From Escherichia coli (GTDB lineage Bacteria > Pseudomonadota > Gammaproteobacteria > Enterobacterales > Enterobacteriaceae), in NCBI RefSeq assembly GCF_024502345.1, contig NZ_JALDNN010000001.1: a DNA stretch of 64,000 nt; one strand, written 5' to 3'. A program made the position numbers and the translations under genes. Shown here piece after piece: positions 3,311 through 58,282 of the stretch. How positions within the stretch are numbered: the stretch's first letter is position 1; every line of letters starts with the position of its first letter. The notes under the pieces are model-generated. The model did no database searches. It had not been told where the DNA came from and saw nothing but the letters and a program-made list of their open reading frames with translations.

Positions 3311-3523
3311 GGTGTTACCTCAGTAATAAACGCTAACGCTTAATAAGTTAACTCTCTTATTAACGAGCTGAATGCCATTTTATCACCGGAGGTTATAAAT
3401 CTTGCGGAATGAATAATGACAAATTATGTGAATTGTAAAAATAGTGAAGGGAGCGGGAACTATAGAAAGTTTTTAAAGAGTGAGAAGAAGAATATCTTAT
3501 TAATTTTTATGGGTTTCACTGAA

Positions 3524-49467: not shown

Positions 49468-49522
49468 GGTGATGCTGCCAACTTACTGATTTAGTGTATG
49501 ATGGTGTTTTTGAGGTGCTCCA

Positions 49523-49798
49523 GTGGCTTCTGTTTCTATCAGCTGTCCCTCCTGTTCAGCTACTGACGGGGTGGTGCGTAACGGCAAAAGCACCGCCGGA
49601 CATCAGCGCTATCTCTGCTCTCACTGCCGTAAAACATGGCAACTGCAGTTCACTTACACCGCTTCTCAACCCGGTACGCACCAGAAAATCATTGATATGG
49701 CCATGAATGGCGTTGGATGCCGGGCAACCGCCCGCATTATGGGCGTTGGCCTCAACACGATTTTCCGCCATTTAAAAAACTCAGGCCGCAGTCGGTAA
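49523..49798 (+). CDS. insA: IS1 protein InsA
   Basis: [91 protein letters not shown]. Confidence 0.95.
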
Positions 49799-50220
49799 CC
49801 TCGCGCATACAGCCGGGCAGTGACGTCATCGTCTGCGCGGAAATGGACGAACAGTGGGGATACGTCGGGGCTAAATCGCGCCAGCGCTGGCTGTTTTACG
49901 CGTATGACAGGCTCCGGAAGACGGTTGTTGCGCACGTATTCGGTGAACGCACTATGGCGACGCTGGGGCGTCTTATGAGCCTGCTGTCACCCTTTGACGT
50001 GGTGATATGGATGACGGATGGCTGGCCGCTGTATGAATCCCGCCTGAAGGGAAAGCTGCACGTAATCAGCAAGCGATATACGCAGCGAATTGAGCGGCAT
50101 AACCTGAATCTGAGGCAGCACCTGGCACGGCTGGGACGGAAGTCGCTGTCGTTCTCAAAATCGGTGGAGCTGCATGACAAAGTCATCGGGCATTATCTGA
50201 ACATAAAACACTATCAATAA
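49717..50220 (+). CDS. insB: IS1 InsB frame (expressed as InsAB' transposase by -1 frameshift)
   Basis: ORF ...[62 protein letters not shown]... Confidence 0.9.
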
Positions 50221-54458: not shown

Positions 54459-55791
<1,333 letters not shown>

Positions 55792-55866
55792 ATTTATTAG
55801 ATCAGGCGTGACCTGACCCATCTTTGGCACAGAGCCAAACCTGAACTGACGGACCGCTCTGTGCCA

Positions 55867-56208
55867 TTACCTGACGTTGTATTCTTTTATGTTAACACCC
55901 TTGATACTGTATATACCTGTCCGCTTAATTCGCTTGCCCTTTTTATTCGTAATAGTTGCTGTAAGTGTACTGCAGCGAATGGAATGACGTTCATCAATCA
56001 CCAGCCGAATTGCTTCTGAAGCATCTTCCACCTCTAGAAGGTCGTGAGTCTTATTTAAGCCGAATGGAACAAGGTGGAAGGCAGTTTTTCCTGATGATTT
56101 TCTGGTTATTTTTACTGGATACAACACATCACCACTTTTATGGATTAATTCAAGCTGTTCAATGTAAATCATGGCAACTTTCCTTCGTTTATTTGCATGA
56201 ATATACAA
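55867..56208 (-). CDS. Hypothetical small protein (101-113 aa) in AT-rich DNA, not recognised
   Basis: ORF MYIHANKRRKVAMIYIEQLELIHKSGDVLYPVKITRKSSGKTAFHLVPFGLNKTHDLLEVEDASEAIRLVIDERHSIRC...; low-GC context; alternative start at MIYIEQ (56172). Confidence 0.3.
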   Translation of the reverse strand: MYIHANKRRKVAMIYIEQLELIHKSGDVLYPVKITRKSSGKTAFHLVPFGLNKTHDLLEVEDASEAIRLVIDERHSIRCSTLTATITNKKGKRIKRTGIYSIKGVNIKEYNVR

Positions 56209-56668
56209 ACCGAAAATAGGAGATGCAATACAAAAGCTGTGGAAATATCAAACAGCCTCTCAATTTGGCAGACAGCGTCTGCCAAATCTTTGCCGATGGG
56301 AATTCTGCAGATGGTGTCTGCGGAATTCCCAATGGTGTTAATTCGCCAGACACTGTCTGGCGAATTTCAACATGTTGAAAAAAGAGGTAAAAAAGCCTCA
56401 TTTGGCGTAAGTTTTTTGCAGAGAACCCACGCTTATACCTTAGACTTAAATCCTTTGATAGTCGCTTGATTAGCTGCGCACCATACGCAGCCCTTGCCTC
56501 GCCACCTTGTTCAAATTCGACAATTCGTCGGCCAATTTCCCAGTATGTCGCGGTCATCAGCGCGTTAACGCTACGTACCGTTTCCGTCCGGACGCTATCG
56601 ACCAGGTGAATAATATCGTCGTGGATTTGCTGGTAGCCTGTTGAGGTTCTCTCTGAGAGCGATTCCAT
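56189..56668 (-). pseudogene. yhcG: YhcG-like (DUF1016 N-terminal domain) fragment, terminated after a palindromic repeat cluster
   Basis: ...TATYWEIGRRIVEFEQGGEARAAYGAQLIKRLSKDLSLRYKRGFSAKNLRQMRLFY... resembles the DUF1016/YhcG N-terminal motif; ORF is only 159 aa and its C-terminal third is encoded by three palindromes. Confidence 0.5.
56263..56366. repeat. Three tandem palindromes at exact 39-bp centre-to-centre spacing sharing a GCAGAC/GTCTGC-type core
   Basis: U1 56263-56287 ATTTGGCAGACagcGTCTGCCAAAT (perfect); U2 56298-56330 GGGAATTCTGCAGAtggtgTCTGCGGAATTCCC (one mismatch); U3 56340-56366 AATTCGCCAGACAcTGTCTGGCGAATT (perfect). Confidence 0.85.
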
Positions 56669-56851
56669 TATCTGTCCCTTTATATGGCGCTGCGTTGAAT
56701 AATGGAATCAGCTATACGCCGGGCATCTACCGGTAACAATCCAGATGAGCGTATTACATTGGTTTTCTTCAGATTATGCGAGGCGCTTTCCAGAAAGAAA
56801 GGAGAATTTCAGCGCCGACTCTTTTCTGAGGAGGCGGCGCTGGGACAGAGC

Positions 56852-58282
<1,431 letters not shown>

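Follow-up and report, generated by a model that had tools for sequence, protein, structure and literature searches.

In Escherichia coli K-12, the genes gltF, yhcADEF and yhcG lie between gltD, encoding the small subunit of glutamate synthase, and nanQ (yhcH), encoding N-acetylneuraminate anomerase. The gltF-yhcADEF genes form the beta-class chaperone-usher "yhc" operon, which among the strains studied was present only in phylogroup A (PMC5216030). In a second arrangement, found for example in O157:H7, E. coli W and strain 2013C-3033, the order is gltD-yhcG-nanQ, and yhcG encodes a complete protein of 375 amino acids (aa). The literature on DUF1016 proteins such as YhcG covers their nuclease fold and their association with restriction-modification (R-M) and BREX loci, and YhcG-type genes were also found inside R-M loci (PMC9881135). 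The present analysis concerns the junction between nanQ and gltD in a stretch of 64,000 nucleotides of an E. coli genome (contig NZ_JALDNN010000001.1), referred to as the window; coordinates are those of the window, except where they are prefixed by the handle of another locus (L). In this junction, yhcG is reduced to its first 135 codons and is followed by 470 bp of foreign DNA carrying a gene for a 101-aa protein. The reading we favour, with a probability of roughly 75%, is that the junction is a recombination scar at a variable, defence-associated chromosomal spot where yhcG was partly replaced, and that it does not reflect a recent loss of gltF or of the fimbrial genes.

Two other groups of described systems are relevant for comparison. 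Rickettsia palindromic elements, repetitive extragenic palindromic (REP) sequences and bacterial interspersed mosaic elements (BIME) are short hairpin-forming palindromes in or near genes, which may form tandem series, mark sites of rearrangement and be accepted within a reading frame. Three palindromes are present in the yhcG remnant of the window, but REP and BIME are dispersed and extragenic, whereas the yhcG hairpin is confined to one locus in E. coli and its copies in the window are part of the reading frame of yhcG. Presumably, the yhcG hairpin has no sequence similarity to REP. The N-terminal reader domains of type IV restriction enzymes (McrB-like and HNH/ScoMcrA-like) resemble the 101-aa protein in that its predicted fold recurs as a domain in such enzymes; unlike these enzymes, the 101-aa protein stands alone, has no catalytic partner nearby and belongs to no Pfam family. 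By analogy with these enzymes, the 101-aa protein might read DNA.

Haplotypes of the gltD-nanQ locus

The junction is bordered by nanQ on the left (55327-55791, plus strand, an open reading frame (ORF) of 154 aa) and by gltD on the right (56852-58270, minus strand, an ORF of 472 aa), with nanK-nanQ on the plus strand and gltB-gltD on the minus strand flanking the gap. By ORF coordinates the gap spans positions 55792-56851, a distance of 1060 bp that had been given exactly in a preliminary description of this DNA made from the sequence alone, as had the 183 bp between the gltD stop (56852) and a yhcG-like start codon (56668). The lower GC content reported there for the intervening DNA was also confirmed (0.446 for the junction and 0.404 for its left 470-bp foreign part, compared with 0.555 for gltD and 0.569 for gltB), and the gap contained what had been described, namely one small ORF, an N-terminal yhcG remnant and three palindromes. 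The gene order of K-12 given there was right, and gltF and yhcADEF are indeed absent: the K-12 proteins GltF, YhcA, YhcD and YhcF had no tblastn match in the 64-kb window, where the only K-12 protein match of this search was to YhcG residues 1-135.

At least five haplotypes were distinguished among E. coli, in agreement with the earlier view of this site as a variable locus. The K-12 type (gltF-yhcADEF-yhcG between gltD and nanQ) and the gltD-yhcG-nanQ type are the first two. The junction studied here is the third, and is also found in strain D72 (NZ_CP035312.1), O104:H4 2009EL-2071 and derivatives of E. coli B. In the RefSeq annotation of D72 the features and their order are identical to those in the window: nanQ, a "transposase" (WP_000639208.1), a pseudogene for a "DUF1016 N-terminal domain-containing protein", and gltD. 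The fourth haplotype is compact, with only 67 bp between gltD and nanQ. In the fifth, represented by E. coli CM2 (L012 6492-13488), nanQ is separated by two hypothetical genes from a short, divergent remnant of DUF1016, past which an island encodes VWA, DUF5682, ATP-binding and DUF5691 proteins. The CM2 fragment was considered as a palindrome region beside another island and this was rejected, as it is a divergent piece of the N-terminal domain.

The frequency of these arrangements was assessed in 5,426 complete E. coli genomes. A 2-kb query covering the junction was matched over at least 80% of its length in 719 of them, so the arrangement is not an artefact. The 470-bp insert was found in 725 genomes (13%) at 99.8% identity, always on the chromosome and never on a plasmid of that genome set, at one or two places per genome (median 1). 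DNA of gltF-yhcA was present in 1,293 genomes (24%) and the 3' part of yhcG in 3,713 (68%). A chimeric query combining the 470-bp insert with gltF-yhcA matched 2,018 genomes, the exact sum of 1,293 and 725, and hence no complete E. coli genome carries both. At the level of the population, this zero overlap gives a negative answer to the question of whether genomes with this junction might carry gltF-yhcA elsewhere, which the preliminary description had named as a possible refutation. The studied junction is thus a common and already annotated variant of E. coli, and an ordinary one.

The preliminary description had concluded that the glt operon is here "gltBD without gltF". Its account of a variable locus, of the missing genes, of the identity of the remnant and of the low GC content stands, but its framing of the difference as a loss from the glt operon does not: gltF is annotated as a DUF1120 protein and is a subunit gene of the yhc chaperone-usher operon, an accessory operon in which yhcA encodes the chaperone and yhcD the usher. 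The absence of gltF is the majority state and is uninformative about glutamate synthase. Since gltF belongs to a fimbrial operon, the function of gltBD is presumably unaffected in the window.

A probable replacement within yhcG

The DNA on the gltD side was 99.6% identical to the gltD-yhcG-nanQ haplotype from position 57300 down to exactly 56263 (BLAST). On the nan side, homology to other haplotypes extended no more than about 15 bp past the end of nanQ. The BLAST breakpoints enclose a foreign segment of 470 bp (55793-56262), which is absent from the K-12, O157-type and compact haplotypes. Because its first 12-15 bp or so could still be aligned with other haplotypes, the true left breakpoint is probably near 55805-55810. 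In effect, about 780 bp of the O157-type haplotype are replaced by 470 bp of foreign DNA of lower GC content, at the cost of the terminator palindrome between nanQ and yhcG and of codons 136-375 of yhcG, and with them the entire PD-(D/E)XK domain. Shared with the gltD-yhcG-nanQ haplotype are the yhcG promoter region, the first 135 codons of the gene, the nan operon on the opposite side, the lack of fimbrial genes and a spacer of 183 bp (56669-56851) containing the sequences upstream of yhcG and downstream of gltD. The gltD-yhcG-nanQ haplotype differs by its full 375-aa YhcG, by the palindrome of the nanQ-side terminator and by the lack of the 101-aa gene. As the closest haplotype, it was taken as the ancestor on the strength of these alignments. 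A hairpin in the spacer (56810-56842) is likely to be the gltD terminator.

The alternative is that a K-12-like locus lost everything from gltF through most of yhcG by deletion, leaving AT-rich debris, as a loss of fimbrial genes implied by the preliminary description would require. All the missing genes are contiguous in K-12, and a yhcG-family palindrome located just after K-12 gltD could have served as an endpoint. However, the 183 bp beside gltD are identical to those of the O157-type haplotype, which lacks gltF and is the nearest relative, and they include 53 bp (56797-56849) that are unlike K-12, where the yhcG-type palindrome follows gltD instead. The yhcG fragment was 99.6% identical to the O157-type haplotype and only 91% identical to K-12. 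The 5' end of yhcG and its upstream region are intact in the window, and therefore no deletion ran into yhcG from the gltF side. With gltF-yhcA limited to 24% of genomes, and the yhc locus to the phylogroup A strains of PMC5216030, a deletion from a K-12-like locus is quite unlikely.

The yhcG remnant (56263-56668, minus strand) was identified by tblastn and coincides with a RefSeq pseudogene call. It corresponds to residues 1-135 of YhcG, with 92.6% identity to the K-12 protein (tblastn), and its reading frame continues for 24 codons into the foreign DNA and ends at 56189. Intact YhcG contains a DUF1016_N domain (PF17761, residues 19-184) and a YhcG_C domain of the PD-(D/E)XK type (PF06250, residues 208-360), and matches the PADLOC candidate defence gene PDC-S02 (E 2e-135). 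In the window, homology stops at codon 135 (position 56263), so that DUF1016_N is truncated and the nuclease domain is absent; RefSeq likewise describes the equivalent feature as a pseudogene without its C-terminus. Having lost its nuclease domain and some of the N-terminal one, this copy of yhcG is a pseudogene, a dead N-terminal fragment.

The right joint falls within a palindrome stem, that of the outermost of three palindromes in yhcG. The three form a triad (56262-56366, minus strand) of units at 56263-56287, 56301-56327 and 56340-56366, which recur in frame every 39 bp and encode the peptides IWQTLSAK, IPQTPSAEF and IRQTVSGE. The outermost palindrome of the intact gene is AAAGATTTGGCAGAC-AGC-GTCTGCCAAATCTTT; in the window its left arm is shortened to ATTTGGCAGAC, from 15 bp in the intact gene to 11 bp. 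Folding of the triad as RNA gave a free energy of -59.4 kcal/mol (z-score -8.8), and a search of Rfam over positions 55600-57000 on either strand found no match at E ≤ 1.

Related palindromes were found elsewhere at the same locus in E. coli, as a hairpin between nanQ and yhcG in the K-12 and O157 types and as a hairpin after gltD in K-12 and in the compact haplotype (extragenic copies at L004 2019-2046, and at L003 9511-9537 and 17847-17875). A 32-mer of the palindrome occurred at a median of two places per genome, corresponding to both strands of a single site, and all the matches listed were at this locus; the idea of a genome-wide repeat was accordingly rejected for E. coli. In the compact haplotype, a single palindrome separates the flank of the nanQ side from that of the gltD side, an arrangement that recombination between the two flanking palindromes would leave. 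In Escherichia albertii NBRC 107761 (L035, about 3400-3500), an independent deletion of 781 bp removed the 3' part of yhcG. The joint of this deletion is a hybrid palindrome, made of the left arm of an internal yhcG unit and the right arm of the intergenic palindrome on the nanQ side. Because three different rearrangements (the window joint, the compact haplotype and E. albertii) end in palindromes of the yhcG family, these palindromes may have promoted breakage or strand exchange at the locus, and a break of this kind might be where the foreign DNA entered the window.

The differences from the best-matching E. coli genome amounted to 15 substitutions in 2 kb, of which 10 were clustered in nanK/nanQ (55300-55810). 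The nan side was 96.5% identical to K-12 and O157, compared with 99.6% identity of the gltD side to the O157 type. This cluster, together with the contrast between the two sides, suggests a mosaic (recombinant) history across the junction.

The foreign module and its 101-aa gene

Most of the foreign segment is a truncated copy of a portable module (55854-56258, minus strand), with about 85% DNA identity to elements of Enterobacter, Yersinia and Klebsiella. In Enterobacter the module is located in the DNA of a lambdoid prophage, in Yersinia canariae in an island beside an integrase at icd, and in Klebsiella on a plasmid, in a copy with an internal deletion in its upstream part. The module elsewhere is about 555 bp long and has, at its upstream end, some 160 bp that the E. 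coli copy lacks. Its contexts are a prophage, an island and a plasmid, with no integron integrase, and an interpretation as an integron cassette with an attC site was rejected.

This upstream stretch of about 160 bp, which is non-coding, is conserved in Enterobacter, Yersinia and Klebsiella (L006 5757-5915, L010 5751-5915 and L005 5943-5989) and absent from E. coli; it might serve as a promoter or encode a regulatory RNA.

The gene within the module (55867-56172, minus strand) encodes the 101-aa protein WP_000639208.1. The length of 101 aa was constant across genera, and the ratio of non-synonymous to synonymous substitution rates (dN/dS) was 0.14-0.23 in comparisons with the Enterobacter and Yersinia copies, which indicates purifying selection. 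On both grounds the ORF is a real gene, and the preliminary description, which had called it an orphan, is superseded here: it is a conserved gene that moves horizontally. The protein had no match in Pfam, NCBIfam or PADLOC, its best PHROG match was not significant (E 0.15), a sequence search of the PDB was empty, and tblastn against 50,697 phage records returned no match. A profile search of 1.8 billion representative proteins retrieved 54 relatives at E ≤ 1e-3, 19 of them at E ≤ 1e-10. The alignment of the relatives spans the whole protein and shows full-length homology to a domain family of about 95 aa. Most relatives are themselves about 100 aa long, and a few are proteins of 300-390 aa with the domain at the C-terminus. 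In four of these longer carriers (P0050, P0059, P0072 and P0073) the other parts had no NCBIfam or PADLOC match, and in P0050 and P0059 they had no Pfam match either.

With a deeper alignment, AlphaFold2 modelled the protein at a predicted local distance difference test score (pLDDT) of 93.8; a model built from close homologues only (pLDDT 53.9) was discarded. The fold had no match among the solved structures of the PDB. In the AlphaFold database (Foldseek E 1e-6 to 1e-3, template modelling score 0.7-0.8), it recurred in HNH endonucleases and in AAA+ ATPases with the annotation AAA_5 or McrB (5-methylcytosine-specific restriction protein B), with a weaker match to a "ScoMcrA-like head domain" protein. 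Three distant stand-alone members of the family (31-35% identity) were each located between an EcoEI-type hsdR and hsdM. The gene of the window, like its close relatives, stands alone, outside any R-M operon. From the profile alignments, the 101-aa protein is assigned to an unnamed, restriction-associated family of domains of about 95 aa, as a solitary member. Fold and neighbourhood suggest a role tied to restriction or anti-restriction.

At loci L016, L017, L023, L024 and L025, such distant relatives make up a conserved small gene between hsdR (EcoEI_R_C type) and hsdM of type I R-M operons. In L023 and L025, the two loci with enough downstream sequence, hsdM was followed by hsdS and a gene for an AAA_15 ATPase.

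Given the family searches, the fold and the R-M contexts, the RefSeq label "transposase" is unsupported and probably wrong. The same observations bear on the idea that an insertion sequence (IS) or transposon left the 470-bp segment behind, the small ORF being a fragment of its transposase. RefSeq and some UniProt entries do name the protein "transposase" or "IS1 encoded protein", and the Klebsiella plasmid copy adjoins an IS110 transposase. Yet no transposase family was matched in Pfam, NCBIfam or PHROGs, nor any transposase by the fold. The gene has kept its length of 101 aa and is under purifying selection, and the complete module, as seen in Enterobacter and Yersinia, does not end in inverted repeats. 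An element limited to one or two places per E. coli genome, and never plasmid-borne in that set, also fits poorly with a mobile IS. The remnant of an IS is therefore a very unlikely origin.

A further alternative is an adaptive swap, in which the 101-aa gene, as a functional factor of defence or anti-defence, took the place of the YhcG nuclease domain at a defence hotspot, perhaps acting with the retained YhcG fragment. The gene is intact in about 720 genomes and under purifying selection across genera, its relatives are found inside type I R-M operons or as fusions with HNH- or McrB-like enzymes, YhcG-type genes also occur within R-M loci (PMC9881135), and another haplotype at this site carries the VWA/ATPase island. 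However, the E. coli copies are nearly identical and uninformative about selection within E. coli, the gene is disrupted in some Shigella, its native upstream region is missing, the YhcG fragment stops inside the N-terminal domain and the 101-aa protein matches no PADLOC model. Such a swap is a possibility to be entertained, but a doubtful one.

In the favoured reading of the junction as a recombination scar, the 101-aa gene may be transcribed by read-through from the yhcG promoter, because its native upstream region is missing, and it would act in restriction or anti-restriction and not in transposition. Several points weigh against this reading or its parts. The direction of the change (insertion or deletion of yhc) and the choice of the ancestral haplotype are provisional. 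The left breakpoint is not at a present-day palindrome but about 13 bp before the expected site of the nanQ-side palindrome. No donor was identified, and no larger intermediate was found among the 5,426 genomes. A simple scan of the junction for promoter and terminator consensus sequences was empty, which leaves the expression model without motif support. The function suggested for the 101-aa protein derives from the recurrence of its fold and from the neighbourhood of relatives only 31-35% identical, and the closely related enterobacterial genes stand alone in surroundings that are unrelated to one another.

Between the convergent nanQ and 101-aa ORFs, RNA folding predicted two stable hairpins (55802-55866), with free energies of -26.6 and -36.7 kcal/mol and z-scores of -4.2 and -5.4. 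An inverted repeat (55825-55835/55856-55866) is located inside this stretch. The hairpins are possible bidirectional terminators; a strict terminator scan returned none.

Elsewhere in the window, an IS1 copy is present between dcuC and nanR (49468 to about 50235), with an exact left inverted repeat at 49468 and an InsB-like ORF at 49717-50220. The dcuC ORF is 442 aa long here, compared with 455 aa in K-12, and the IS1 appears to cut its 5' end, as in some other E. coli genomes. One genome (L013) retains only the right-hand 64 bp of the 470-bp insert, directly joined to IS1, and lacks the nan operon, which is consistent with an IS1-associated deletion.

A hairpin at a fixed position in yhcG genes

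The preliminary description had listed the palindrome triad among the few contents of the intervening DNA. Comparison with other bacteria indicated that yhcG genes carry it as a conserved element. When one genome per species was scanned with the pattern ATTCNNCAGACNNNGTCTGNNGAAT, at least 120 stretches were found, where a rough estimate of the chance expectation is about 9 stretches in 298 Gb. The window units fit this family pattern with no or one mismatch and encode I-x-Q-T-x-S-x-E/K. Among the matches listed were members of the Bacteroidota, Planctomycetota, Cyanobacteria, Actinomycetes and Candidate Phyla Radiation (CPR); 95 of the 120 matches listed were in a YhcG homologue or within 150 nt of one, always in the frame encoding I-x-Q-T-x-S-x-E. 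The two dinucleotides left free by the pattern were complementary in 85 of 102 cases among the matches listed, compared with 1/16 expected by chance.

As this set was chosen by the pattern itself, a second set was assembled that was not chosen by the palindrome. It consisted of 80 homologues from viral contigs, recovered by peptide patterns in the C-terminal nuclease domain and representing 73 unique genes. Of the 73 genes, 47 contained a perfect hairpin in which a stem of 7 bp or more closes a 3-nt loop, and in 24 of the 73 the stem reached 10 bp or more; the corresponding values in codon-shuffled controls were 7.8% and 0.14%. All of the hairpins were in a single codon phase, and 35 of 46 fell in one column of the protein alignment. 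When windows were anchored on that column, at least 8 of 11 positions formed Watson-Crick pairs in 48 of the 73 genes, as against 2 of 511 shifted control windows. The site lies upstream of the LSWSHY motif, at a homologous position and codon phase.

The pairing was conserved independently of the sequence. Among 41 good unique windows there were 34 different stems, and the encoded peptides varied widely. For 46 unique windows, 78.4% of cells were paired, compared with 55.2±1.5% in shuffled windows and 27-38% in controls with a slid partner. The covariation score was 0.538 compared with 0.167±0.017 in shuffles, none of 500 shuffles reaching 0.538, although a symmetric protein-binding site would give the same covariation as a hairpin. 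RNAalifold independently recovered the helix, each of whose seven pairs showed compensatory changes. The perfect stems, together with mismatches in which G·T was seen 5 times and A·C 14 times, give no sign of tolerance for wobble on the sense strand, in numbers too small to separate a function as RNA from one as DNA. The palindromes might alternatively reflect a peptide motif (I-x-Q-T-x-S-x-E), or chance, and have no role as nucleic acid; the units do encode a similar peptide in E. coli and in many homologues. However, in the set not chosen by the palindrome the peptides varied while pairing was kept, and neither the complementarity of the free dinucleotides, the covariation, the compensatory changes nor the count at the anchored site would be expected from a peptide constraint. 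This explanation is barely credible.

A repeat array was observed in a Rhodothermales metagenome-assembled genome (JAJECE010000060.1, L106 2472-5348). It extends over 2.9 kb, about 110 bp upstream of the yhcG of that genome, and comprises some 37 units of 78 bp, each with a palindrome. Each unit consists of two 39-bp sub-units, a period that is the same as that of the E. coli triad.

A hairpin with a stem of 7-13 bp and a 3-nt loop is thus found at a fixed position and phase of yhcG/DUF1016 genes across phyla; its stem sequence changes freely and the encoded amino acids follow, while pairing is kept. Since it occupies one homologous position and one codon phase of a single gene family, the hairpin appears to be ancestral to the family rather than inserted. 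No description of it was found in the searchable full-text literature, and it has no Rfam model. Whether the hairpin is both functional at the level of the nucleic acid and previously undescribed is, in our estimation, evenly poised. Much less certain is the further suggestion that it might be the recognition or regulatory site of YhcG itself, either as a DNA cruciform or operator or as an mRNA hairpin, which is put forward because YhcG is the only factor known to accompany it.

The difference in gene content at this locus in itself matters little: it is K-12 that is the unusual, minority strain here, and gltF is best read as a fimbrial gene. The "transposase" label carried by the 101-aa gene in hundreds of genomes is probably wrong, and a small restriction-linked protein family that has no name now has a confident fold model (pLDDT 93.8). 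If the hairpin acts as suggested, it would make yhcG loci fragile, and this would explain the breakpoints in the window, in E. albertii and in the compact haplotype. A hairpin within the gene of a widespread candidate defence nuclease provides an experimental handle on what YhcG-type nucleases recognise, and it presents a clear case of nucleic-acid structure dictating protein sequence.

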